Part shown: positions 6,183 through 38,230 of the stretch, piece after piece | Numbering within the stretch: position 1 is the first letter of the stretch | Layout of the letters: every line of letters starts with the position of its first letter | From: an uncultured bacterium | Lineage (GTDB): Bacteria; Patescibacteriota; Minisyncoccia; Phycocordibacterales; UBA918 | DNA: 64,000 nucleotides | Assembly: GCA_965652925.1 (NCBI GenBank) | Contig: CBFGXL010000001.1 | Location: forward strand, 23,821-87,820 | Reading direction: 5' to 3' | Program-made: the position numbers and the translations under genes | Notes under the pieces: generated by a model | The model's input: only the letters and a program-made list of their open reading frames with translations | The model's database searches: none | What the model was told of the DNA's origin: nothing

Positions 6183-7273
6183 TATTGCTGTGGAACAAAG
6201 ATCATCGTGCCATAATCCCGGTTGAGATTGAGGCGAAGCATTCCGTTTTCAATGGTGAATGAATTAGTGAGCATCAGATCATTGACATACTCTGACTCAA
6301 GCGACCCCTCGCAATACATTTTTGTTGCAATTGCAGGACTCAGACTCAACACCTCTCTATCTACGAGAAATGTGCCTGACAGCGTATTGCAGTCAGTGGT
6401 ACTTGTATATTCCTCTGTGGGGAGAAATGAAAGTACGAATGAATCGCTTTTGGGTGTTACAACACTACCATCCTTGAGTAAGGTTTGCTGCCATATCCAT
6501 GCATTGTTAAGAATAGGACTAAAAACTTTCTGGTGCACTCTGATGAGATCGTAATCGAGATTTGAACTATACGCTGATCCGTCTTCACCGTAGAGCCGTA
6601 TGGTATCTCCATCAACTACCACATATTCCGCCGTCACTTTATTTGTTTGGGAATCCTGTAGCGCATAAAAGACCTTTCCGTCTTTCTCTGCCTTTACCCA
6701 CACCCCTTCAGTAACCACAGGATCAGATGTCTCCCCTTTGTATACCTCTTTCTTGTGGTACATGCCTTCTGCCGCACCTTCACTGGTGCCACGCAAAGAA
6801 AGTTCTGTCTCTATTCCTTCACACGATGCACAAGGGAGGGTCCCTCGGTACATTGCTATCAGTTTCTCTTCAGTACTCTTCTTCCCCACGACCTCAAGTG
6901 AGTCAGTGATTGAAAAAATACCTTGTATAGGGTACTTCTGCCAGTAGTCAGTGCTGATATTCTCAATAGGTGTAATGACCCCAGATGCAGTGATAAGATC
7001 ACCCTCTACCAATGCCGGAGCCGATTGGGAAAGTAATCCCAGATCAAGCGCATAATATTCACCACTTTGGTTTTTAATGCCCGCAGCACAGTCAGCATTC
7101 TCAACATTTTGGTCTTCCTGTGTGGGTAGACACAGATACTCCCCTTCCATGCTCACCCGTTCTGTGTTTGGTATATCAGCTTGTTTTTCCTGATAGATAT
7201 AATTATTAAGCCAGAAAAATGCTAACACGAGGAGCGTAAGTACTCCTGCAACACTCACTGCAATTTTTTTCAT
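6182..7273 (-). CDS. Secreted or lipoprotein-like hypothetical protein with a C-terminal META/HslJ-like domain
   Basis: Signal peptide MKKIAVSVAGVLTLLVLAF. The C-terminus (TDCNTLSGTFLVD...MYCEGSLESEYVNDLML..SFTIENGMLRLNL) fits the META (DUF306) pattern. TATAAT lies 6 nt upstream of ATG 7273, so the mRNA is likely leaderless. Confidence 0.55.
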   Translation of the reverse strand: MKKIAVSVAGVLTLLVLAFFWLNNYIYQEKQADIPNTERVSMEGEYLCLPTQEDQNVENADCAAGIKNQSGEYYALDLGLLSQSAPALVEGDLITASGVITPIENISTDYWQKYPIQGIFSITDSLEVVGKKSTEEKLIAMYRGTLPCASCEGIETELSLRGTSEGAAEGMYHKKEVYKGETSDPVVTEGVWVKAEKDGKVFYALQDSQTNKVTAEYVVVDGDTIRLYGEDGSAYSSNLDYDLIRVHQKVFSPILNNAWIWQQTLLKDGSVVTPKSDSFVLSFLPTEEYTSTTDCNTLSGTFLVDREVLSLSPAIATKMYCEGSLESEYVNDLMLTNSFTIENGMLRLNLNRDYGTMIFVPQQ

Positions 7274-7307
7274 GCGTGCATTATAGCACTTGTGTATGGG
7301 TAAAAAA

Positions 7308-8993
7308 CTAGGCTTTTGAAGCAATCTTTGCTATCGCATCCTGTGTCTTTGCACATATTCGCCCTTCTGCTTGCAACTTCTTCACTACCTCAAACGACAG
7401 AAGGCTTTCCAGAAGATCACTGCTTGAGGAAGAAATATAGACCTCCTTCTTGTTGTCCAATAACCTTTGTATTGAAGCGGCAAGCATTTCTTCAGCTTCA
7501 TAATCCAGTGAGAACAGATTGCGCAAGCGCACGATAACTGCAGGGATATTGTTGCTGTGTGCAAGTGTCTTAATATTTGCCTCATGCCGAGAACTATCGA
7601 GGTAGCCGAGCGAACCTGCAATACTATACGTAACGAAGGTATATACATCATCCTTGGGAATGTGGAGCGTGCGCCCTTTGCGTATTTCCTTTTTAGAACC
7701 GTCTTTATAGTTGAAGATGATATCGAAATAGCCATGGCTAACACGATCTGCGAAGAACAGAAGTGCCACAACAGCTCCGATCACCACAGCGATACCCGCA
7801 TCTTCAAACACAGTGATTGCCAATACCAAGATGGCGATAAAAAAGCTCTGCTTTTCTTTGTGGTAGAACTCAACAAATTTATGCGTTTCAATGAGGCCAA
7901 GCGCTGTATTGACCAGGAGCGCGGCAATCACCGTCATCGGGATATAGATAAACAGTGGCAGTACCACGAGTGCAATGATTGCCGTAAAGACAGCTGCGAG
8001 TCCTGAGGAAGTTTTATGTGTCGCACCCGCTTTGATATTTGCTCCGGTTCGGATAAATACTCCGGTTGCAGGGAGTCCACCCAAGGCTCCTGAACCCAGG
8101 TTCGACAGACCAAGCCCAAACAGTTCTTTGCGGGCTGAAGACTGCGTCTTTGTCACTTTGTCTGCTATTTGAGCAGTGATGAGCGTCTCGAGAATTGATA
8201 TAAGCGCAACTGTTCCAGCTACACCAATGATCCACTTGATAGCTTCAATGTTGCCAAACAAAGCTGGCGCCTGCTGCCAAGGAACCGATACTACGAGCGT
8301 AGCCTTGAAGGAACCAAATTTATCGCCAAGCGTTATGAGGTCTATTGCGGGCAAAAAATTGCTTTCAATCCACCCGAAGAGAATGCCGATCACCGCAACA
8401 GGTATTACTGCAGGAAGGAACTTAACATAACGCTTCCATACGAGAATAGCGATAAGAAAGATGCCGAACACAGCCAAAGCCTGCAGGTTGGTGTTGTGAG
8501 CGTGTTCGAGGTACAACTCAATATCTCCAATAAAGTGACCTGTTCGTTTCAAAGCAGAAAGTCCTGTTGCATCAAAGAGTTGGGACGCAGCAATCAAAAA
8601 AGCTACTCCAGCTGCGAAGCCGTACATGATGCTTGAAGGAATGTAATACAAAAAGCGATCGGCCTTGAGCGCCCACACACCAAGTATCATGGCTCCTGAA
8701 ACAACAGCGATCATAGGCAAAACAGCAGGGCCCAAGTCTCCGGGGGCAACGAGCGTAGCAGCAAAGAGGACCGTCGTGAGCGCTCCTGCCGCGCCGATAA
8801 CATTGTAATTATTACCACCAAAAATAGCAGCGATCAGTGTCGCCCAGATACCGGTAATAACCCCCGGAAGCGGACCAGCTCCTGAGGCAACAGAAAGTGC
8901 GATGGAAAGCGGTACGGAAATGAGTGCCACAGTAAGACCTGACTTCCAGTTTTCCCTCACTCGTTTTTGAAATGTTGTTATTGCTGTGATCAT
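7308..8993 (-). CDS. SulP-family anion transporter with C-terminal STAS domain
   Basis: SulP N-terminal motif WKSGLTVALISVPLSIALSVASGAGPLPGVITGIWATLIAAIFGG, multiple TMs, and a C-terminal STAS-like segment. The start at the internal ATG 8993 is uncertain; the longest ORF begins with TTG at 9077. Confidence 0.85.
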   Translation of the reverse strand: MITAITTFQKRVRENWKSGLTVALISVPLSIALSVASGAGPLPGVITGIWATLIAAIFGGNNYNVIGAAGALTTVLFAATLVAPGDLGPAVLPMIAVVSGAMILGVWALKADRFLYYIPSSIMYGFAAGVAFLIAASQLFDATGLSALKRTGHFIGDIELYLEHAHNTNLQALAVFGIFLIAILVWKRYVKFLPAVIPVAVIGILFGWIESNFLPAIDLITLGDKFGSFKATLVVSVPWQQAPALFGNIEAIKWIIGVAGTVALISILETLITAQIADKVTKTQSSARKELFGLGLSNLGSGALGGLPATGVFIRTGANIKAGATHKTSSGLAAVFTAIIALVVLPLFIYIPMTVIAALLVNTALGLIETHKFVEFYHKEKQSFFIAILVLAITVFEDAGIAVVIGAVVALLFFADRVSHGYFDIIFNYKDGSKKEIRKGRTLHIPKDDVYTFVTYSIAGSLGYLDSSRHEANIKTLAHSNNIPAVIVRLRNLFSLDYEAEEMLAASIQRLLDNKKEVYISSSSSDLLESLLSFEVVKKLQAEGRICAKTQDAIAKIASKA

Positions 8994-14773: not shown

Positions 14774-14777
14774 AAAT

Positions 14778-14812
14778 AAGCCCTGAGCCTACGGCTCAGG
14801 GCTTATTTTTAT
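14778..14812 (+). terminator. Rho-independent terminator after the DEAD-box helicase
   Basis: AAGCCCTGAGCC-tacg-GGCTCAGGGCTT followed by ATTTTTAT. Confidence 0.7.
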
Positions 14813-14908
14813 CTGTAGCCTCTGCCATTATGAGGTTGATATGAAATTTTGTAAGAAAGCCTCAAACCCAACGTCATAAGGCACGATAGCGGAACTCCCG
14901 CCGCTGTC

Positions 14909-15334
14909 GTGTTCTTAAACAGCAGAAGGATTGGATGGTTGCTTACCAAAATCAAGTGGCCGGTGGTTGCGTGCGTACTGGCGGCGGTGCTCTCCCCGAG
15001 CATCTCCGCAGCTCATACACAATCTCCTGTCAGTGCACGGACTGTCGAACAGACCGTACGTGCAACGTTCGCAAACGCCCGGGTGCTCATCAGCATTGCA
15101 CGTTGCGAGTCGCGTTTCCGTCACTACGATGAGAACGGCAACGTGCTCCGCAATGAGCAAGGCTCAAGTGCAACCGGAGTCATGCAGATCATGTCGAGCG
15201 TACACAAAGGCCCTGCTTCAGAGCTGGGGTATGACATCAACACGCTCGATGGCAACCTGGGCTATGCGCTTCACCTCTACAGGACGCAAGGAACAAGCCC
15301 GTGGAACGCATCTAAATACTGCTGGAGTAGTTAG
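14909..15334 (+). CDS. Secreted lysozyme-like / transglycosylase-like (Rpf-type) domain protein
   Basis: Signal peptide, then ARCESRF...NGN....G..ATGVMQI...W.....PW..S.YC. This resembles the Rpf/transglycosylase-like domain pattern (CES..G....G..G..QI...W). Family-level call only. Confidence 0.5.
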   Translation: MFLNSRRIGWLLTKIKWPVVACVLAAVLSPSISAAHTQSPVSARTVEQTVRATFANARVLISIARCESRFRHYDENGNVLRNEQGSSATGVMQIMSSVHKGPASELGYDINTLDGNLGYALHLYRTQGTSPWNASKYCWSS

Positions 15335-15383
15335 ACTCTGGGAGGAGTCGGCAGTTCTTCATAACGCCTTTATTGGCGACCTT

Positions 15384-15413
15384 AAGGGCGGATCAGACCG
15401 ATCCGCCCTTTTC
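15384..15413 (+). terminator. Rho-independent terminator (AGGGCGGATC-agacc-GATCCGCCCT plus TTTC)
   Basis: 10-bp stem about 50 nt downstream of the transglycosylase-like gene. Confidence 0.6.
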
Positions 15414-15512
15414 ATATGCGCTATACTTGAAGCTATGAAAGCAATCATCGGAGCCATCTTGCTATTTGTAGGACTGCTTATTCTCAATGCGTTCTTTTCC
15501 TGATACGAGGAA

Positions 15513-15540
15513 TTGACAAATTAGTCTTATATTGTATAGT
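15513..15540 (+). promoter_or_regulatory. Putative sigma-70 promoter: TTGACA-16nt-TATAGT, with TG just upstream of the -10
   Basis: TTGACA at 15513-15518 and TATAGT at 15535-15540, about 65 nt upstream of the GTG start at 15606. Confidence 0.4.
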
Positions 15541-15605
15541 TAATGTGGAATTCCTGTTCGTCTGAACAGGTCACCGACAAGCACATCAGAGCATAAGGAG
15601 ACACT

Positions 15606-16046
15606 GTGCGCAACGAAAAAATTGAGGAGAAGCTCGCGCTGTTCCAGACGGAGCTCGAGGCGTGGGCTACACGCGAAGAACTGCTACAGGCAGGAGAACG
15701 CATCATCCTTTCCTATGTCATCAGGAAAGAGGGCTCCGAAGCGCTTCTCGATCTTCCAATCGGCGAGTTCTTCACCTTTGCACGGATCACCAGTGCAGGC
15801 GCTCGGCCCGGTGTTGCCACTCGCGTGGTCCACCTCTTGAGGGACTGGGGCATCGATGACTATCGTAAGGTGGACATCACCACCGTCCGTGAACTCGTCG
15901 CCTACGAAGGCAACGAGTTGCTCCTGAGAAGTGTGCACAACTGCGGCAACCTGTCTGTTGCTGCAATCGCCAAGACTCTCGAGCATGAAGGACTGCCGGT
16001 GCCTGAAGACTTGAAGCTCATCGCAGAGAAGTTCTTTCGCCCATAA
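15606..16046 (+). CDS. Hypothetical protein with two helix-hairpin-helix-like segments
   Basis: GTG start with SD AAGGAG 5 nt upstream. ARPGVATRVVHLLRDWGI and NCGNLSVAAIAKTLEHEGL look HhH-like. No confident family. Confidence 0.5.
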   Translation: MRNEKIEEKLALFQTELEAWATREELLQAGERIILSYVIRKEGSEALLDLPIGEFFTFARITSAGARPGVATRVVHLLRDWGIDDYRKVDITTVRELVAYEGNELLLRSVHNCGNLSVAAIAKTLEHEGLPVPEDLKLIAEKFFRP

Positions 16047-16051
16047 GACTC

Positions 16052-16087
16052 GACCCCGACGGTTCAAACCGCCGGGGTCATTTTATT
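16052..16087 (+). terminator. Rho-independent terminator (GACCCCGACGG / CCGCCGGGGTC plus TTTTATT)
   Basis: Hairpin with one stem mismatch, followed by a T-tract. Confidence 0.5.
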
Positions 16088-16120
16088 CTTCGGTGCACTA
16101 CTTTGCGCACATCTGCGGAA

Positions 16121-16618
16121 CTATCCTCGCGGGCCATCGCCGAACGGGAAACTTTTCAATACCCTTTTGCTCTTGAGTGCATCCCTCGCAACAAGTACCA
16201 TACACGATGCATGATGATGTGTCCCCGGTTTAAACTCTCTGCCCTCAACCGTCGAGACGTGCGGGCGGAAGCCTGCCCCTGCCCAGTGTAGGTTCTTCAC
16301 CGTTCCGCCATTCTCGATAATGCGCATGAAGAGTTGTGTGTGGAGCAGGTCAAGTGCACGATCGCGCACAAGCACATAGACGGGTACGTCGTTTTTGGGA
16401 CCGAAAAGGGCCGGCTCGTGGGAGACAAGGCTGATGTACCCTTCGCGAACATCTGCGGCAAGCGTCGCCAGATCAGCTGCAAAAGGACCTTGTTCAGCCA
16501 CTTTTCCCAGCGTAAACCACTGCATGAGCGTACAATGGAGCGGCAAGGGCTCGTCTGGCCCATATACAGTGCCCTCAGGCATATCTTCAATGGGCAGAAA
16601 AACAAGATACTCAGACAT
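16121..16618 (-). CDS. 2H phosphoesterase superfamily protein (LigT / 2'-5' RNA ligase-like)
   Basis: Two H-x-T/S-x motifs: PLHCTLMQWF and RPHVSTVEG, in a ~165-aa protein. Start taken at MSEYLVFLPIED. Confidence 0.5.
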   Translation of the reverse strand: MSEYLVFLPIEDMPEGTVYGPDEPLPLHCTLMQWFTLGKVAEQGPFAADLATLAADVREGYISLVSHEPALFGPKNDVPVYVLVRDRALDLLHTQLFMRIIENGGTVKNLHWAGAGFRPHVSTVEGREFKPGTHHHASCMVLVARDALKSKRVLKSFPFGDGPRG

Positions 16619-29747: not shown

Positions 29748-30980
29748 ATGAATAAAGAAAAACTCTCAACGGATCCGTACAAGGGAGTCCGCGATTTCTA
29801 CCCTGAAGATATGGCTATACTTCAGTATATTTTCAGTGTATGGTCGCAGACGGCAGAATCATTCGGTTACGAGAGGTATGATGCATCTATATTAGAACCT
29901 GCCGAACTTTACCGCAGTAAAACCAGTGATGAGATAGTCAATGAACAAACCTATACTTTTATTGATCGAGGGGACCGCGAAGTGACTCTGCGCCCAGAAA
30001 TGACCCCGACAGTTGCACGTATGATCGCAGGAAAGCGACGCGAGCTTTCCTTCCCTGTCCGCTGGTACTCGATACCGAATCTCTTCCGGTACGAGCGTCC
30101 GCAACGCGGACGCTTGCGGGAACATTACCAGCTCAACTGTGATCTTTTTGGTGCAGATCACTTCAGTGCTGATGTTGAAATGATCGCACTTGCCTCTCAG
30201 CTGCTGCTTAATTTCGGTGCTGATCCAGACATGTTTGAGATTCGTATCAATGATCGAAGCTGGCTTGATGAAGTATTCTCCAACGAGGGATTCAATGAGG
30301 AACAAAAAAAGCAGATGCTTGCATTGCTTGATCGCAAAGAAAAAATCAATAATTTCAATGAAGAGGCGCTGAAGATCGCCGGCAAGCCATTTGCTCTACC
30401 AGCGAAGCTTGATGAGAACAGTAATCTAGCTCAGGTTATAGATGGCCTCCGGAAACTTGGCATTGAAAATGTGAAGGTGTCACCCTCTACAGTGCGTGGC
30501 TTCACGTATTATACCGGCACGATCTTCGAGATTTTCGATGTTTCAGGAGAGAACAACCGGTCATTGCTTGGCGGAGGACGTTATGACAATCTCACGGGAT
30601 TGTTTGGCGGAAATGCTATCTCAGGGATTGGCTTTGGTATGGGTGATGTTACCATGCGTGATTTCTTGGAGACACATGATCTCCTTACCTCTGGCATCAC
30701 CGCTCCGACACTCATGATCATCCCTACTGATAGTGAATTCAATCTTGAAGGACAACGTCTTGCTCAGGAATTCCGGGCCGCAGGCATAGCAACCGCAGTA
30801 GATATCTCAACAAAAAAGATCGGCAAGAAGATAAGCGACGCGGCTGATGCATTTGTCACCTATGCTTTGGTTCTTGGCGAAGATGAAGCATCTTCGCATA
30901 CTTATGTGGTGAAGAACCTTGGAGAGAAACAAGAATTTTCTGGTACACTTGCTGAACTTATTGCTAACATAGAGGCATAA
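29748..30980 (+). CDS. hisS: Histidyl-tRNA synthetase
   Basis: GVRDFYPED, class II motif 2 FRYERPQRGRLREHYQ, and a C-terminal anticodon-binding domain. TTGCAG-17-TACAAT ends 6 nt before the ATG, suggesting a leaderless mRNA. Confidence 0.9.
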   Translation: MNKEKLSTDPYKGVRDFYPEDMAILQYIFSVWSQTAESFGYERYDASILEPAELYRSKTSDEIVNEQTYTFIDRGDREVTLRPEMTPTVARMIAGKRRELSFPVRWYSIPNLFRYERPQRGRLREHYQLNCDLFGADHFSADVEMIALASQLLLNFGADPDMFEIRINDRSWLDEVFSNEGFNEEQKKQMLALLDRKEKINNFNEEALKIAGKPFALPAKLDENSNLAQVIDGLRKLGIENVKVSPSTVRGFTYYTGTIFEIFDVSGENNRSLLGGGRYDNLTGLFGGNAISGIGFGMGDVTMRDFLETHDLLTSGITAPTLMIIPTDSEFNLEGQRLAQEFRAAGIATAVDISTKKIGKKISDAADAFVTYALVLGEDEASSHTYVVKNLGEKQEFSGTLAELIANIEA

Positions 30981-31555
30981 TGCGATACATCGTTTTTGAC
31001 TTAGAAACTCAAAATATTTTTCAAGATGTCGGTTCAACCGATGTTACTTCGCTTGATATCTCAGTTGCATGCGTCTACGACTCCATTGATGACAAATACA
31101 CTACCGTGAGTGTCGATGAGCTTCATACACTCTGGCCAATAATAGAAAAGGCAGACGCACTAGTTGGATACAACAGCAACCACTTTGATATCCCATTGCT
31201 TAACAAATATTATCCAGGTGACCTCACACACATAAAGAGCATTGATATTCTCGAGTCAATCCGCGCCTCGCTCGGTCGCAGACTTCGACTCGACTCTGTG
31301 GCTCAAGCAACAGTGGGTGCAAAGAAAAGTGCTGACGGACTACAAGCTGTGCGCTGGTGGCGTGAAGGAAAGATCAATGAGATCAAAAAATACTGCGAGC
31401 AGGATGTCCGCGTGACTAAAAAAGTGTTCGACTATGCACTTGCTCATGGACATGTGCTTTTTAAAGACGGATATCGTAAGAGAGAGATACCCATTGATAC
31501 TTCTACTTGGTTGATCAAAGAAGACGCAACACTAACACACTCACTTCCCTTCTAA
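30980..31555 (+). CDS. DnaQ-like / PolB-type 3'-5' exonuclease superfamily protein (YprB-like)
   Basis: FDLET (Exo I-like DxE) and YNSNHFDIPLL (Exo II-like). 191 aa. The start ATG overlaps the hisS stop (TAATG). Confidence 0.6.
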   Translation: MRYIVFDLETQNIFQDVGSTDVTSLDISVACVYDSIDDKYTTVSVDELHTLWPIIEKADALVGYNSNHFDIPLLNKYYPGDLTHIKSIDILESIRASLGRRLRLDSVAQATVGAKKSADGLQAVRWWREGKINEIKKYCEQDVRVTKKVFDYALAHGHVLFKDGYRKREIPIDTSTWLIKEDATLTHSLPF

Positions 31556-32464: not shown

Positions 32465-33247
32465 ATGGACGAAACTCCGGAAGAAACACAGGCACAGGCC
32501 TCTGAATCATCTGCACCCAAGGCGACACGCCCTTCATTAGCAGTCCCGATTTCTATTGTTTTTGGTTTTGGTTTGGTTGCAGCAGCGATATTCTTCAATG
32601 GAAATCCTCTTCCATTTACCACTCCCAACAACGAGGCTGCGGTTCTTGACTCAGACAACCCAACAACAGGAGAAATACGTCCCGTTGATGAAACAGACCA
32701 TATACGCGGCAATCCGAATGCACCTATTGTTATGATCGAATACTCTGATTATGATTGCCCATTCTGCAAGAACTTCCATGAGACGATGAAGCAGGTTATG
32801 AATACGTATGGTACCGATGGGAAGGTTGCGTGGGTGTACCGGCACATGCCTCTGGAACAACTGCACCCGAATGCGCCATACATAGCACAGGCCTCAGAGT
32901 GCGTTGCTGACCTCGGTGGCAGCGATGCGTTCTGGAAATTCAGCGATCTCGTATTTGGAGAGCGCGCAACAAATGAACCAACTAATACTGCGCGTTTGAA
33001 TGAATTCGCAACAACTGCCGGGGTAAGTGGTACTGCATTTGACGCCTGCATGGCCGAAGGACGAACCACGGCACGTGTAGAAGCCGACTTCGCTGATGCC
33101 CTGAAAGCTGGCGGCAAAGGAACTCCCTATACACTTGTGCTTGTCGGCGGACAGCAGGGTGTTATAAGCGGAGCGCAACCATACTCAACGGTAAGCAAGA
33201 TCCTCGATACACTCATTGCTCAGATCGAAGGTGGAGCACAAGAATAA
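32465..33247 (+). CDS. DsbA-family thiol:disulfide oxidoreductase (membrane-anchored)
   Basis: N-terminal TM and the thioredoxin-fold CPFC active site in YSDYDCPFCKNFH. Confidence 0.75.
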   Translation: MDETPEETQAQASESSAPKATRPSLAVPISIVFGFGLVAAAIFFNGNPLPFTTPNNEAAVLDSDNPTTGEIRPVDETDHIRGNPNAPIVMIEYSDYDCPFCKNFHETMKQVMNTYGTDGKVAWVYRHMPLEQLHPNAPYIAQASECVADLGGSDAFWKFSDLVFGERATNEPTNTARLNEFATTAGVSGTAFDACMAEGRTTARVEADFADALKAGGKGTPYTLVLVGGQQGVISGAQPYSTVSKILDTLIAQIEGGAQE

Positions 33248-33249
33248 CA

Positions 33250-33278
33250 AAAAGCCCTCAGTGATGAGGGCTTTTTGT
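33250..33278. terminator. Bidirectional rho-independent terminator (AAAGCCCTCA-gtga-TGAGGGCTTT)
   Basis: 10-bp stem flanked by A- and T-runs, between the convergent dsbA-like gene and the helicase-nuclease gene. Confidence 0.65.
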
Positions 33279-36200
33279 TATCTCTGTTGCAACATATGGA
33301 CATATGCACAGTAATCGCAGACTTTTTCATCGCAGGCAGATGTTAAGAATTCACCTCCAATGATCTGTTTTACTACGCTGATTATCTCCTGCTGAAGCTC
33401 GTGAATTTCTTCGGCAGTTATCTCAAATCTCTCCTCGTGGATCACTCCTTTGTTGTCCGGTTCAATAAAGGTGAGTACCCCTGTCTTACACACATAACGC
33501 TCATCCCCATACAATGAAAGGAGAAGAGCATAGAAAGTAAGCTGACGTTTGTATTCTCCATTCCCTGTCTGTGTTTTCCCTTCAATGACATTGCGTGTTT
33601 TGGGCTTCCCTGTCTTGTAATCAACAACCTGAATAACTCTTCCCTCGCCATCCATATCCAGCCGATCAAGTTTTCCGGTGAGCGTGAGTTCTGGGAATTC
33701 AGGTATTCCCGTTGGCATAGCAACATGGATGGAGAATTCTTCCACGGTATTCAAAGGGAGGGAGCTCGCCATGTGAGGTATATAGGAAAGCAAGGATTGC
33801 AGGCCTTTTTCATGTAGCTGAGTATACTCCTCCTCCGATAACGGAAGTTTCAACAGCGCAAGCTCAAGGTAATGCTTTATCTCCGAATCGCTCGGCATTT
33901 CCCCTTTTTTTGTGTGTGTGGCAGTCACCTTTTGCATAACTTCGTGTACGGCTGTCCCGAACAGAAGTGGCAGATCCTGCACCTCAGGTATCCGCAACAC
34001 ATTACGATAAAGATAATTCCATGGACTCTGCAAGTAATTATTGAGTGCGGTTGCTGAAAGCCCTCTTTCTTTGAGCATATGCTGCAGAAATGCCGGATCA
34101 ACCTGCGCTTTAACTTCAACCGCGGACAATGAGGCAGTAGGGCTGAATCGTGATTCGACCTCTTCAGTTGCAAGTGCTTTCATATGCTCAGACGCTATTT
34201 CACAAAGAAGCCTTGAGACAAGGAGTTTTTTCCCATCGCTGTTTGTATGAGCGTACGAAAGATGAAGCGATTCCTTTGCACGCGTCATAGCAACAAACAG
34301 AAGCCTCCGTTCATCGTCATAAGGGTCAAAGATCTCCGCGTCAATGTGTCGATTAAGCGGGACATCAAAGTATGTTCTGCGTACTGCCCCACCCCAATTA
34401 GAATCATGCACATGCGGGACAAAGACGTGCGAAAACTCAAGTCCTTTAGATTTATGAGCAGTCATAACCTGCACGGCATGTGCCTGTGTGGCAAGATATG
34501 GAGCATTCAAGGGAAGTTTATATTGGAAATATGATGTGAGCGAATCATGTACATCTTTCAGTGTGGCATGTTGCTTCTGAAGAGACAACGCCTCAAGCTC
34601 ATCATATAAGCGGCGAATGACTCTCCCATGCTCAACAGGGTCCGCGACTAACGCCATCTTCAACAATCCACTTTCTTGCAGCAGATATTCCAGGACACGG
34701 GCGGGGCTTTGTGTCATCTGACGCCTCTGAGCTTCTGCAAGCACCTGTGCTATTCGGGTAAATTTCTCTGGTTCTGCTACACCAAGTGTTCGCAATTTTA
34801 CCTCATCAGAAATCAAGCTCCACAACGATACGGAAAAATTGCGCGTAGTGAGCACTTTCAACAGATCATCTGTTTTTATTTCCCAATGTGCTCCATGCAA
34901 TAACGTAAATAAGGGCTTCTGTGAATCCACCTGCACCACTGCACCGATAAGATTAAAAACTGAAGTGGTCAGCGGGTGCTGCAGAATGTCTCCATCTGCA
35001 GTTGCTTCAACGGCAATACCCTTCTTGCGTAAAAGCGATGCAAACTGTTCGACCTCCCTGTTGGTACGTACAATGACAGCAATTTCTTCGCTCTTTACGC
35101 CACTATTGATACACCTCACAATAGTGTCCACCACCCAAGCATCCTCAACTATCTGATGAGAGAACGCCGCACTTACCACCTCACCTTTCGCTTCTGGCTG
35201 TGCCTGAAGCGGAATGCGCAATTCAGCTGCAGGTCCTTCCCCTGCCCTGATAAGGCTAAAAGCAGCGTCAAGAATGGTCTGACCTGATCTGTAGTTGTGG
35301 GTGAGTGCTACAGTCTTTGTGTGTGAGAAGGAATCTTCGAAATAAAGAAAATTCTCCAGAGATGCTCCTTGAAAACGATAGATCGCCTGTTTCTCATCAC
35401 CTACCACAAAGATGTTTGGGGTGTCATGGTATGCACACAGCAATTCCAAAATGCGATTCTGACTACCATTCACATCCTGATGTTCATCGGCGTGAATATA
35501 GTGATATTGCTCCTGCAGGTCCAGAAGCATGTCAGCATTCTCTTCGAGTGCCTTGATCGTTTCAACGATCATATCGTCGAAATCAAAAAGACGCTGCTCT
35601 TGAAGCAATGCTTCATAGAGTCGATAGACCAACAACAGTTCTTTGTTCTTTTCGATACTTTTCTCCTTCTTCTGGTATTCGCCACGAACCTTTCCTTTAT
35701 GGGCTCCCTTAGTGTGCATTTTCTCAATACCTGCAAGCGCATGCTCTTGCGTAGCGATGATAGATGCAAGACCATCAGGACTGATATTCTCCTGTTTCAT
35801 CGACGATAATATGCGTAAAAGGGGTGTGACATAGTATGAAGGGTCCCCGACGGGACGGAGCAGACGGAAACTGTTTGACTGCAGAATGCTCTCAATAAGA
35901 TCAATCTTCTCAAGGTCGGTCGCTGCTCTTCCGCCTATGATCCGTGTGTACGCATCGGGATAGGTGGAAATGAGCTGCTGGCAGAAACTATGAAAAGTTG
36001 CGATCTTAACGCGATACGCCCGCGTACCTGCATACAGTGCAAGACGTTCTCGCATAGCTGAGGCCCCTGACTCAGTAAAGGTGAGCGCAAGTATGTTTTC
36101 TGGCTGTACCTGCGTTTCAAGCAGTATCTTGGCAATGCGAAGCGTGAGTATCTGTGTCTTCCCTGTGCCCGGTCCCGCAATAACCATCACCGGCCCTTCA

Positions 36201-36298
36201 ATGGCATCAACCGCAGCCCTCTGTTCAGTATTCAAGGCATTGTATGCCCGTTTAAATGCCTCAGAAAGCTCCTCACCTTTGCGGTCGGTTTTTTGCAT
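33278..36298 (-). CDS. UvrD/PcrA-family SF1 helicase fused to a C-terminal PD-(D/E)xK nuclease with a Cys cluster (AddB/Cas4-like)
   Basis: N-terminal AGPGTGKT (Walker A) and UvrD motifs. The C-terminus has GKLDRLD...VVDYKTGK (PD-D/ExK) and SACDEKVCDYCAY. Start at MQKTDRK (36298); the longest ORF reaches 36370. About 1007 aa. Confidence 0.8.
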   Translation of the reverse strand: MQKTDRKGEELSEAFKRAYNALNTEQRAAVDAIEGPVMVIAGPGTGKTQILTLRIAKILLETQVQPENILALTFTESGASAMRERLALYAGTRAYRVKIATFHSFCQQLISTYPDAYTRIIGGRAATDLEKIDLIESILQSNSFRLLRPVGDPSYYVTPLLRILSSMKQENISPDGLASIIATQEHALAGIEKMHTKGAHKGKVRGEYQKKEKSIEKNKELLLVYRLYEALLQEQRLFDFDDMIVETIKALEENADMLLDLQEQYHYIHADEHQDVNGSQNRILELLCAYHDTPNIFVVGDEKQAIYRFQGASLENFLYFEDSFSHTKTVALTHNYRSGQTILDAAFSLIRAGEGPAAELRIPLQAQPEAKGEVVSAAFSHQIVEDAWVVDTIVRCINSGVKSEEIAVIVRTNREVEQFASLLRKKGIAVEATADGDILQHPLTTSVFNLIGAVVQVDSQKPLFTLLHGAHWEIKTDDLLKVLTTRNFSVSLWSLISDEVKLRTLGVAEPEKFTRIAQVLAEAQRRQMTQSPARVLEYLLQESGLLKMALVADPVEHGRVIRRLYDELEALSLQKQHATLKDVHDSLTSYFQYKLPLNAPYLATQAHAVQVMTAHKSKGLEFSHVFVPHVHDSNWGGAVRRTYFDVPLNRHIDAEIFDPYDDERRLLFVAMTRAKESLHLSYAHTNSDGKKLLVSRLLCEIASEHMKALATEEVESRFSPTASLSAVEVKAQVDPAFLQHMLKERGLSATALNNYLQSPWNYLYRNVLRIPEVQDLPLLFGTAVHEVMQKVTATHTKKGEMPSDSEIKHYLELALLKLPLSEEEYTQLHEKGLQSLLSYIPHMASSLPLNTVEEFSIHVAMPTGIPEFPELTLTGKLDRLDMDGEGRVIQVVDYKTGKPKTRNVIEGKTQTGNGEYKRQLTFYALLLSLYGDERYVCKTGVLTFIEPDNKGVIHEERFEITAEEIHELQQEIISVVKQIIGGEFLTSACDEKVCDYCAYVHMLQQR

Positions 36299-36376
36299 AA
36301 AATACAGTGTACTACAAAAAACACCGGAGCTCATAGAGGCAGTTCCGATGTTTTTTGATGTACTGTGCAAGCAAAG

Positions 36377-37651
36377 TTAGAAAAGTATGTACTGGATATA
36401 CCACACAAGTATGCCGGCAGCGTAACCAATCGCAGCAGGGATAGCTGCTATCTTCAGATATTGTTTGAAGCTCAGCTCTTTGACCATTCCCATAGCCACA
36501 ACCCCCGCTGCTGACCCAATAACGAGCATCGAGCCACCGGTTCCCACACAGAGCGCAAGTAACACCCAGAGCCGAAAATCAGTTGTTTGAAGGATATCGA
36601 GTGCTGCAGCAGTAAGTGGGATATTGTCTACAATCGCGGAAAAAACTCCTAAAAGGACACTTCCTGCAATGAGGCGTGAAACTGCCGGGTCTTCACCGAA
36701 GAGACTAGCCGATATCTGGTCCAGTATACCGAGATAACTTAACGCTCCTACTGCAAAGAGGATACCAATGAAGAAAAGCAAACTGGTGATATCAAGCTTT
36801 GCAAGCAATTTCTCAATGTCCATTGAAAGATGAGACTCTCTATTCGCTGTGGTGTTCGCAAATAGCCCAATGATCAGTCCAACAACACCAACTCCAAAAA
36901 GCATCCCCATAAACGGCGGCAAACCAACGAGGTGCGCAAGCGGGGGTAATGAGAAAGAGAGGAATGCCGCTGTTATGACAAATTTCTCCGAAGATGAAAG
37001 TGCTACTGTCTCGTGAGTTACCGGCTTTTCATCAACGCTATCGCCCTTGATCTGCCGCACCAAGAGGAAATTGCTAACCAAGACAACCGCAAGTGATGGG
37101 AGAAAGCCCCACATAATGATCTCAAGCGCTGTGAACTTGCCTGCAAGCCAGATCATGATGGTAGTCACATCCCCCACCGGAGAGAATGCACCGCCGGCAT
37201 TTGCAGCAATAACAATTGCTGCAGCTGCAATGAGGAGATTGTTGCCTTTAAAGAAGCGTCGAGCGATTTGAATCATCACGATTGTCGTTGTGAGGTTATC
37301 AATAACCGCAGACAGAAAGAAAGCGATGCCTGTGATAAGTATAAGCTGCTTGCGATCATCCAAACCAAGCGCAAGCAACTTAATTCTTAACAGATCAAAG
37401 AAACGGTAGTGAACAAGCACCTCAACCAAAGTCATTGCTGCAAGCAGGAATACAACCAATGAGAACGTCTCGGCTGACAAATGACTGATAGCCTCCTCAA
37501 TAAGGTGATGATCAGCACCGGTAAGTGCCAAGGCGCCCCACAAAATAGCAGCGAGAGCAGTCGCAGTGAGAGACTTATTGACCTTCCAGTGATGCTCGAG
37601 GGTTATCAGAATGTAGCCCGCAATAAAAATAACACTAGCAAACAGAATCAT
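36377..37651 (-). CDS. Ion-transporter-superfamily permease (NhaD Na+/H+ antiporter / ArsB-like)
   Basis: 424 aa, about 11-12 TM, with SAVIDNLTTT and SAIVDNIPLT repeat motifs typical of NhaD/ArsB/CitMHS-type transporters. Confidence 0.6.
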   Translation of the reverse strand: MILFASVIFIAGYILITLEHHWKVNKSLTATALAAILWGALALTGADHHLIEEAISHLSAETFSLVVFLLAAMTLVEVLVHYRFFDLLRIKLLALGLDDRKQLILITGIAFFLSAVIDNLTTTIVMIQIARRFFKGNNLLIAAAAIVIAANAGGAFSPVGDVTTIMIWLAGKFTALEIIMWGFLPSLAVVLVSNFLLVRQIKGDSVDEKPVTHETVALSSSEKFVITAAFLSFSLPPLAHLVGLPPFMGMLFGVGVVGLIIGLFANTTANRESHLSMDIEKLLAKLDITSLLFFIGILFAVGALSYLGILDQISASLFGEDPAVSRLIAGSVLLGVFSAIVDNIPLTAAALDILQTTDFRLWVLLALCVGTGGSMLVIGSAAGVVAMGMVKELSFKQYLKIAAIPAAIGYAAGILVWYIQYILF

Positions 37652-37765: not shown

Positions 37766-38230
37766 CTAGAAGAGCTCTTGATTTTCCAAATAAGCAATAC
37801 CGGTCTTGTTGCGTGCTTCAAGAGTAGGCATGAGGCGTCGCGCACTTTTATCGCGAAGCATCTGCATTGCTTCCTCAGGAGCAGCAAACTTGTATTCAAG
37901 CAACCGTGGAGGCAGCTTGATCTTTGTCTTCATCTCCTCCGTGAAGACCCCACCATCAAAGATGAACATGATATATTCCTCAGAACTACCACGGTAATCA
38001 ATACTTAAAAGGCGGTCTGGACCGGTCATTTCAACACCAATCTCAGCAAACATCTCTCGGCGAAAAGCATTACTTGGTGATTCTCCTATCTCAACATAGC
38101 CGCCAGGAAATATCCATCCTTCCTTATAGCTCGGTTTGACAATAAGTACATTCCCGACCGTATCGGTAATGAGACCAGCAACCACAACGTCTTTTGATGC
38201 TTGATGCTTCACGCCACAAATATAGCACAA
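37766..38230 (-). CDS. NUDIX hydrolase
   Basis: Nudix box GGYVEIGESPSNAFRREMFAEIGVE (GX5EX7REUXEEXGU). Non-ATG start (TTG at 38230, or GTG 12 nt downstream). Confidence 0.8.
   Translation of the reverse strand: MCYICGVKHQASKDVVVAGLITDTVGNVLIVKPSYKEGWIFPGGYVEIGESPSNAFRREMFAEIGVEMTGPDRLLSIDYRGSSEEYIMFIFDGGVFTEEMKTKIKLPPRLLEYKFAAPEEAMQMLRDKSARRLMPTLEARNKTGIAYLENQELF

Follow-up and report, generated by a model that had tools for sequence, protein, structure and literature searches.

A single-chain UvrD-type helicase and AdnA/Cas4-class nuclease of Parcubacteria as a candidate DNA resection enzyme

What role is played in a bacterium with a very small genome by a single polypeptide that carries both a helicase motor and a nuclease? 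This question is raised by a gene in a 64,000-nucleotide stretch of contig CBFGXL010000001.1 (assembly GCA_965652925.1), here called the window, from an uncultured member of the Patescibacteria (candidate phyla radiation, CPR; class Parcubacteria/Paceibacteria). These bacteria account for a large share of bacterial diversity, their genomes are very small, and little is known of their DNA-repair equipment. The original prediction for this gene, made from the DNA letters, described a UvrD-type helicase fused to a cysteine-cluster nuclease and proposed either a one-polypeptide AddAB/AdnAB-like enzyme or a helicase-nuclease of a defence system. We report that across Parcubacteria this is a core housekeeping gene with conserved synteny and that both the motor and the nuclease of its product are apparently active. 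We favour, with a probability of roughly 0.55, a single-chain helicase-nuclease for end or gap resection, possibly serving also as the PcrA/UvrD of the lineage.

Motor and nuclease of the fusion protein

The helicase-nuclease gene lies on the minus strand, and the coordinates first assigned to it, given without a strand, are the exact stop-to-start span of a 1006-amino-acid (aa) open reading frame (ORF) (Table 1). Counted from a TTG codon, the ORF covers 33278..36370, and an alternative upstream ATG at 36334 yields the 1018-aa form of database entry P0001 (100% identical); the ATG at 36298 was taken as the start because the N-terminus of the homologues fits there. Databases name the protein ATP-dependent helicase. 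The three Pfam domains expected from the original prediction (PF00580, PF13361, and PF12705) were all matched above their gathering thresholds. Furthermore, the superfamily 1A (SF1A) motif set Q, I, Ia, II, III, IV, V, and VI is complete, with LNTEQ (Q), LALTFT (Ia), YRS (IV), TAHKSKGLEF (V), and VAMTRAK (VI) in addition to the motifs listed in Table 1, and it does not vary across 47 aligned orthologues (57-75% identity to the query). The description of a protein of about 1000 aa with a whole SF1 helicase core was thus borne out, and the agreement goes far beyond chance.

Among curated hidden Markov models (HMMs), the motor was nearest to PcrA (TIGR01073), with 284 bits against an equivalog cut-off of 911, and it scored 204 against 1144 bits for UvrD (TIGR01075) and 224 against 951 bits for Rep (TIGR01074). 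The AddA/RecB models likewise stayed below cut-off (TIGR02785, 114 versus 708 bits; TIGR02784, 141 versus 861 bits; TIGR00609, 140 versus 696 bits), and the AddB equivalog cut-off was not reached either. Since all curated scores lie far under their equivalog cut-offs, the protein is not an orthologue of PcrA, UvrD, Rep, AddA, or RecB. A sequence search of the PDB ranked PcrA first (1pjr, 181 bits), followed by UvrD, Rep, AdnB (97), AddA (68), and RecB (41). An AlphaFold2 model built from the 47-sequence alignment had a mean predicted local distance difference test score (pLDDT) of 81, with values of 84-94 over most of the nuclease domain. The best full-length Foldseek match of this model was AddA (4cej_A; E value of 3e-30; ~1200 aligned columns), and the PcrA/UvrD matches, at 25% identity, covered the motor only.

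The motif III consensus of PcrA and UvrD is WRGA; that of the present family is RFQGAS, which places an invariant Phe309 at the position of the AdnB ratchet-pawl residue Trp325. In AdnB, motif III reads YGWRGAS, Trp325 is the ratchet pawl, and the W325F variant retains 90% of the wild-type resection velocity (PMC8789073). Phe309 is therefore no argument against a working motor. Collectively, these comparisons suggest that the SF1A motor, of the PcrA/UvrD/AddA/AdnB type and with 3'-to-5' polarity, is apparently active.

The DRLD...DYK nuclease motifs noted earlier were recovered in the C-terminal domain as GKLDRLD and VVDYK, both invariant and both within the PDDEXK_1 match. Glu854 is likewise invariant in the 47 orthologues, and the catalytic nuclease residues are constant across 194 aligned nuclease domains. 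The domain also carries the QxxxY motif that is typical of RecB-family nucleases. The metal ligands of AdnA are His833, Asp920, and Asp934 (PMC8789073). The H...D...DxK pattern of the window protein fits these residues and AdnA Lys936 by motif; the computed AdnA alignment spans only the D893 region, and His785 is matched by motif pattern. These features point to a RecB-superfamily nuclease that is apparently active, with its two-metal site intact.

By profile, the nuclease was nearest to AdnA (E value of 5e-5). When the nuclease domain was compared with known nucleases, the top matches and their figures were AdnA (11.2), the Argonaute-associated Cas4-family enzyme ACE1 (10.4), human Exo5 (10.4), RecE (9.6), Cas4 (9.5), Dna2 (9.3), and AddB (8.9), and the AddA and RecB nucleases were absent from these top matches. 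By these comparisons, the nuclease is best assigned to the AdnA/AddB/Cas4/Exo5/Dna2 class and not to the AddA/RecB class. Nucleases of this class act 5'-to-3' in AddAB, Dna2, Exo5, and Cas4.

In AdnAB, the heterodimeric motor-nuclease of mycobacteria, AdnB tracks 3'-to-5' on one strand, and the 5' strand is taken and cleaved by the nuclease of AdnA; an iron-sulfur (Fe-S) subdomain of AdnA at the fork junction holds the two unwound strands apart (PMC8789073). The window motor resembles AdnB, which is a 3'-to-5' SF1A motor with an aromatic ratchet pawl in motif III. With its AdnA-type nuclease class, the chain would thus join a lead-motor-type helicase to a class of nuclease that handles the 5'-terminated strand in AdnAB. 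The two systems differ in that AdnAB consists of two paralogous chains with two nucleases, one per strand, whereas the window protein is one chain with an AdnB-like motor and an AdnA-like nuclease, and in that the cysteine set equivalent to the AdnA Fe-S subdomain is incomplete in the window protein.

Proteins with this architecture have been catalogued before. The UvrD-Cas4-like fusions form the largest pfam12705 branch and are monophyletic in both halves; some of their genes adjoin Type III restriction-modification (R-M) or Dcm-Vsr genes and others stand alone, and an ancillary defence or repair role has been predicted for them (Hudaiberdiev et al. 2017, PMC5704561). The supplementary tree of that study has a leaf named 'Cas4-UvrD Parcubacteria group'. 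A 1065-aa 'ATP-dependent DNA helicase' of Hymenobacter (L088:4655-7852, plasmid NZ_CP095057.1), whose gene adjoins BREX-1 genes (brxL, pglZ, and pglX), is collinear with the query over the full length (29% identity; E value of 1e-103) and has the FRFQGAS motif III of the family together with the 'CP' cysteine and the C-x4-C-x2-C tail. A Methanomethylovorans homologue of 1015 aa (L089:4730-7777, plasmid NC_019972.1) has csa3 in the same 15-kb stretch and a 'helicase-related protein' downstream. In view of its full-length homology to the Hymenobacter fusion, the window protein is, judged by sequence, a member of the already catalogued UvrD-Cas4-like family, with which it shares the UvrD-like SF1 helicase, the C-terminal Cas4-like PD-(D/E)XK domain, the (Y/F)RFQGAS motif III, and the C-x4-C-x2-C tail. 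It differs from the catalogued fusions in that the Parcubacteria gene stands in a housekeeping context at all examined loci, not beside Type III R-M or Dcm-Vsr genes, and in that the clade of the window protein is without two of the four cluster cysteines. In the literature searched, the fusion class is mentioned only in the Cas4 phylogenomics paper (PMC5704561), and a search on Patescibacteria or Parcubacteria with AddAB, RecBCD, UvrD, and DNA repair returned no paper on this protein. The present analysis adds that the fusion family is a universal, syntenic housekeeping gene in Parcubacteria, that its nuclease is of the AdnA/AddB class, and that one clade has shed half of the cluster cysteines.

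Cysteine cluster of the nuclease

The original prediction had likened the C-terminal cysteines to the Fe-S cluster of AddB/Cas4 nucleases. The C-x4-C-x2-C string is indeed present (C989, C994, and C997), but the AddB/Cas4-like Fe-S set is incomplete, since the position of the first ligand is occupied by Ser758. The window protein thus departs from the four-Cys iron staple of AddB/Cas4/Dna2/AdnA-class nucleases, which is made of one cysteine in the N-terminal helix and three C-terminal ones. In AddB and Cas4, the cysteines are spaced C-x2-C-x5-C, which differs from the C-x4-C-x2-C found here. Position 758 is serine in 46 of the 47 close orthologues and cysteine in 107 of 193 family nuclease domains. 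In the same 47 orthologues, cysteine is kept at position 989 in 45 and at position 997 in 43, and position 994 is cysteine in 4 and serine in 41. All four canonical positions are cysteines in ~106 of the 193 family nuclease domains, mainly in a sister cluster of the one that holds the query.

A signature of the residues at positions 758/937/989/994/997 was tallied for the ~185 gap-free sequences among the 194 aligned domains. The most frequent pattern was C-[hydrophobic]-C-C-C (~106, 84 of them CMCCC), followed by SCCSC (39); S-x-CCC and the lack of cysteine at every position were each found in ~10 domains, SCCCC, the type of the window protein, in 5, and CCCCC in 1. Cys937 is almost confined to members without Cys758, and four-Cys members usually have methionine at position 937. 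The domains were also grouped by the unweighted pair group method with arithmetic mean (UPGMA) on identity distances, a clustering and not a phylogeny, after removal of the cysteine columns. The query fell into a cluster of 75 sequences that is devoid of Cys758, and the sister cluster contained 106 sequences with Cys758 and 11 scattered losses. Both the Ser758 and the four-Cys branches are Parcubacteria.

Since the distant Hymenobacter homologue has it as well, the four-Cys Fe-S site appears to represent the original condition of the family, and the clade of the window protein is losing or remodelling it. Fe-S binding by the window protein is therefore doubtful, both because the first ligand is replaced by Ser758 and because cysteines are progressively lost in the clade. 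The co-occurrence of Cys937 with the absence of Cys758 would be consistent with Cys937 acting as a stand-in for the lost ligand.

Distribution and gene order

A protein search returned ~8000 scored relatives, and the best 120 all shared one domain set and a length of ~1000 aa. The named sources among these 120 were all Patescibacteria (Kaiserbacteria, Nomurabacteria, Paceibacteria, and Parcubacteria), and the named genomes closest to the clade of the window were Kaiserbacteria and Nomurabacteria. With only the nuclease domain as the query, an exhaustive HMMER search yielded 2385 cluster representatives at E values of ≤1e-3 and 302 at ≤1e-30. Among the best 150 representatives, the full-length ones all bear the nuclease at the C-terminus of a ~1000-aa protein, and the shorter entries resemble metagenomic fragments. 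Walker A was intact in all 25 representatives inspected, and no helicase-dead paralogue was seen among them. When one genome per GTDB species was scanned, the gene was found in at least 482 species genomes. The best 80 species matches came from Kaiser-, Nomura-, Adler-, Vogel-, Wildermuth-, Lipton-, Taylor-, Harrison-, Colwell-, and Niyogibacteria and from 'Minisyncoccia', and many other matches bear generic labels, such as 'uncultured Candidatus Saccharibacteria bacterium'. A search of a phage collection yielded no relative of the nuclease domain.

Two of the closest genome matches are labelled as lying outside the Patescibacteria, namely, L008 (Patiriisocius sp.) and L059 (Methanosarcinales archaeon). 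Both are probably mis-binned contigs in public metagenome-assembled genomes; the synteny of L008 is of the Parcubacteria type, and L059, a contig of 3 kb, does not extend far enough for an assessment.

On the minus strand of the window, the gene order is rpoB, rpoC, dnaG, rpoD, a membrane protein gene, Nudix, a CitMHS/NhaD-like transporter gene, and the helicase-nuclease gene, and the next four genes, on mixed strands, are dsbA-like, bacA/uppP, an RNase-H-fold 3'-5' exonuclease gene, and hisS. The neighbours named originally (DsbA, NhaD, and Nudix) were all verified at the locus. The usual block at related loci can be written as rpoB-rpoC-dnaG-rpoD-[variable]-gene-dsbA-bacA-exonuclease-hisS. 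It recurs around an orthologue with 75% identity and around a 57%-identical Nomurabacteria orthologue on a 997-kb contig, and the genes that separate rpoD from the helicase-nuclease vary between loci. Three loci of the four-Cys branch, in which the nuclease domain is 35-37% identical to that of the query, have the common core rpoC-dnaG-rpoD-[x]-gene-dsbA; bacA was detected in none of the three, and the exonuclease and hisS were detected in one. By tblastn over 87 loci, many of them on short contigs, dsbA was found downstream in 48 and rpoD upstream in 37, and the exonuclease, bacA, and hisS were found in 43, 39, and 38 loci, respectively. At loci with another context, the neighbours are also housekeeping genes (ABC transporter, DEAD-box helicase, BipA, PheT, PBP1, and RNase J).

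Comparison of the family HMM with every ORF of the 87 loci revealed no second UvrD-like or PD-(D/E)XK gene within ~8 kb, and the only extra matches were two split copies of the helicase-nuclease gene itself. In the window, no partner subunit was found among the ORFs examined (~20 of roughly 60 were scanned against Pfam). The earlier statement that no partner lies nearby is thus upheld over a wider set of loci. The recurring block and the lack of an adjacent relative argue for a vertically inherited core gene, not for a gene of a defence island or for one half of an operon-encoded heterodimer.

The two split copies are of different kinds. At L072:4590-8792 (CAZBZO010000004.1, 'uncultured Candidatus Saccharibacteria bacterium'), an insert of ~1 kb divides the gene between motifs V and VI; it holds an opposite-strand, Asn/Lys-rich ORF of 247 aa (6803-7546), and the gene is either split into a motor-fragment polypeptide and a nuclease polypeptide or a pseudogene. 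At L022:5783-8813, the gene is present as two overlapping ORFs of 620 aa and 393 aa, through a frameshift or an assembly error. The RNase-H-fold exonuclease of the block accompanies the helicase-nuclease gene in L001, L003, and L007, among others, and in 43 of the 87 loci in total, and a functional link is possible.

The window is taken to be ordinary chromosome on account of rpoB, rpoC, dnaG, rpoD, and hisS together with genes for an SMC-family ATPase and RNase R. Searches of the 64 kb for tRNA genes and for Rfam families at gathering threshold found none, and the apparently ORF-poor stretches had no Rfam match at an E value of ≤0.1. One such region of ~1.7 kb (14774-16534), from a DEAD-box helicase gene to truB, is without a convincing long ORF. 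Another, at the right end, is accounted for by an ORF of at least 714 codons (61857-63998, plus strand) that runs out of the window; it starts HLHVHSHYSLLNAIPTPKELA and, by eye, looks like the PHP domain of DnaE (DNA polymerase III alpha). A scan for promoters and terminators around the helicase-nuclease gene gave matches no commoner than in shuffled sequence.

Table 1. Coordinates of the helicase-nuclease gene, its domains and motifs, and neighbouring genes in the window
Feature	Position	Strand	Residues (aa)	Basis or remark
Helicase-nuclease coding sequence	33278..36298	minus	1006 plus stop	stop codon to start codon; start ATG at 36298
SF1A UvrD/PcrA-type helicase core	34247..36235	minus	22-684	Pfam
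UvrD-helicase (PF00580)			22-324	Pfam; 2e-62; 211.8 bits, gathering cut-off 23
UvrD_C (PF13361)			331-684	Pfam; 3.7e-26; 92.8 bits, cut-off 25.6
PDDEXK_1 (PF12705)			747-1000	Pfam; 1.2e-28; 101.2 bits, cut-off 22
Walker A / motif I, AGPGTGKT	36155..36178	minus	41-48	invariant in 47/47 orthologues
Walker B / motif II, DEHQD	35474..35488	minus	271-275	invariant in 47 orthologues
Motif III, GDEKQAIYRFQGAS	35360..35401	minus	300-313	invariant in 47 orthologues
Linker, motor to nuclease	34061..34246	minus	685-746	Pfam limits, model secondary structure and pLDDT; presumably in the place of the PcrA/UvrD C-terminal domain
PD-(D/E)XK nuclease domain, Cas4/AdnA/AddB class	33281..34060	minus	747-1006	
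Ser758 in NNYLQSPW, first (N-terminal helix) cluster position	34025..34027	minus	758	alignments; wider family mostly NNYLxCPW
His785, predicted metal-binding residue	33944..33946	minus	785	invariant in 47 orthologues; equivalence to AdnA His833 proposed by motif pattern
GKLDRLD	33656..33676	minus	D878, D881	invariant; aligned with AdnA GRLDRLE
VVDYKTG, the (D/E)xK motif	33608..33628	minus	D893-x-K895	invariant; aligned with AdnA VVD(934)LKTGK
QLTFY, QxxxY motif	33530..33544	minus	Q919, Y923	invariant
Cys937, lineage-specific	33488..33490	minus	937	signature tally of family nuclease domains
CDEKVCDYC, C-terminal cluster remnant	33308..33334	minus	C989-x4-C994-x2-C997	alignments
DsbA-like gene	32465-33247	plus		converges on the helicase-nuclease gene
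CitMHS/NhaD-like transporter gene	36377-37651	minus		neighbour
Nudix gene	37766-38230	minus		neighbour
RNase-H-fold 3'-5' exonuclease gene	30980-31555	plus	191	RNase_H_2 / DNA_pol_B_exo2; two genes from the helicase-nuclease gene

Candidate role in resection and its alternatives

If the protein is a resection enzyme, its motor would load at a DNA end, nick, or gap, track 3'-to-5' on one strand, and unwind the duplex, and the tethered C-terminal nuclease would cut the displaced 5' strand, so that the product would be a 3' single-stranded tail for RecA. The protein would then be a minimal, one-chain counterpart of AddAB/AdnAB that has no need of a separate sequence-scanning subunit. Its tasks in a reduced genome would be recombinational repair and the rescue of replication forks, and the same enzyme may double as the PcrA/UvrD of the lineage.

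Comparison with known enzymes supports the proposal of a one-polypeptide AddAB/AdnAB-like enzyme in part. A single chain with motor and nuclease is present, and its best full-length fold match is AddA. However, the protein is not simply 'AddA without AddB', because its motor is nearer to PcrA/UvrD and its nuclease is of the AdnA/AddB/Cas4 class. It has the Pfam domain order of AddA and RecB but is ~200 aa shorter than either (1232 aa and 1180 aa, respectively), and it differs from AddAB and RecBCD in having no adjacent partner gene and a nuclease outside the AddA/RecB class. Dna2, like Exo5 a eukaryotic Fe-S nuclease, also has a nuclease and a helicase on one chain, but there the nuclease is N-terminal and the motor is of the 5'-to-3' SF1B type; the differences in domain order and motor family suggest an independent fusion. 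The window protein is without the inactivated helicase-like domain that carries the putative Chi-recognition site of AddB (PMC3321194).

Several points weigh against a resection role. The strand that the nuclease would cut and the loading at DNA ends are read from the structural class of the enzyme only. In a model of the nuclease domain alone, the pLDDT was 72.8 and was low at domain residues 144-180, which include the DxK motif. A literature search found no experimental report, biochemical or genetic, on any member of the fusion family. Finally, the ancestral role may not have been repair, because other phyla have homologues over the full length that are encoded in defence islands.

Of the other explanations, the one that fares best is that the protein is primarily the Parcubacterial PcrA/UvrD, that is, an accessory replicative helicase, an anti-RecA translocase, and the helicase of excision or mismatch repair. 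The nuclease, which presumably stands where PcrA and UvrD have their C-terminal domain, would in that case degrade the displaced strand or a flap and replace separate exonucleases, so that this explanation overlaps with a resection role. The helicase cores closest to the motor by HMM and by PDB sequence are indeed those of PcrA, UvrD, and Rep, which have the same motif set, and the match by fold is at 25% identity. JGI labels orthologues 'DNA helicase-2 / PcrA', the gene, universal in the class, is a neighbour of rpoBC-dnaG-rpoD, and ~1.1 Mb of related loci, all of them neighbourhoods of the helicase-nuclease gene, showed no other UvrD-like gene. In contrast, the scores are far under the PcrA, UvrD, and Rep equivalog cut-offs (for PcrA, less than a third of the value required), motif III is RFQGAS instead of the WRGAS of AdnB and the WRGA of PcrA/UvrD, and the proteins homologous over the full length are helicase-nuclease fusions and not PcrA. 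Furthermore, the extra C-terminal nuclease of ~260 aa is strictly conserved with its catalytic residues intact, whereas the matched PcrA, UvrD, and Rep structures are without one, the matches ending at the helicase core. As a primary role we therefore consider the PcrA/UvrD function unlikely, while retaining it as a possible second duty of a resection enzyme.

A defence effector that degrades invading DNA, like the homologues beside BREX, Type III R-M, Dcm-Vsr, or CRISPR-associated genes, would agree with the collinear homology to the BREX-adjacent Hymenobacter protein and to the Methanomethylovorans plasmid protein near csa3, and with the defence-linked roles inferred for UvrD-Cas4 fusions (PMC5704561). 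PADLOC models of the Gabija protein GajB also match the helicase part, but these matches reflect generic UvrD similarity confined to the helicase core, and no GajA-like (OLD-family) gene is nearby. No defence gene flanks the gene in the window or at any examined Parcubacteria locus, the core-gene synteny persists to loci whose nuclease domain is ~35-40% identical to that of the query, and the phage collection yielded no match. Moreover, its presence in so many species is a pattern regarded as that of a housekeeping gene and not of patchy mobile defence. We therefore reject the defence-system reading for the window locus, and the corresponding alternative of the original prediction, at odds with a core, syntenic gene beside rpoBC-dnaG-rpoD, is very improbable.

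Least probable of all, by a similar reckoning, is an AddA/AdnB-like subunit of a conventional two-subunit enzyme with an AddB/AdnA-like or RecC/RecD-like partner encoded elsewhere in the genome: the domain order of AddA, RecB, and AdnB and the full-length fold match to AddA would allow it, as would the genome scope of the search (64 kb of the window genome and flanks of ~8-10 kb at related loci), but addAB, adnAB, and recBCD genes are normally adjacent and no second UvrD-like or PD-(D/E)XK ORF lies within ~8 kb in the 87 loci, the AddB/AdnA-class nuclease means that both 'active halves' of AddAB are already in one protein, the scores are far under the AddA and RecB equivalog cut-offs, and the inspected representatives, with Walker A intact throughout, included no helicase-dead paralogue.

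In kind, a resection role for this protein would not be surprising, given the AddA/RecB architecture and a fusion family that is already catalogued. The protein is an uncharacterised core enzyme of a major uncultured lineage, and its role is probably in repair. If resection is indeed carried out by this single chain, no simpler bacterial motor-nuclease able to make a 3' tail would be known, and the chain would be a compact subject for structural and single-molecule work. A bolder and tentative proposal, which we think unlikely to hold in full, is that Parcubacteria resect breaks with one self-sufficient chain, with no Chi-scanning subunit or partner, and that the clade of the window has dispensed with the four-Cys staple, the ligand having moved to Cys937 or the cluster having been lost, while the nuclease site has been kept. 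The graded loss of cysteines in a strictly conserved nuclease, from four to three, to three with one moved, and to none, provides a natural set of variants, which could be used to test whether the Fe-S cluster of AddB/AdnA/Cas4-type nucleases is structural, regulatory, or dispensable. If the four-Cys staple has indeed been dispensed with, the family would represent a natural experiment on the purpose of the Fe-S cluster in repair nucleases.

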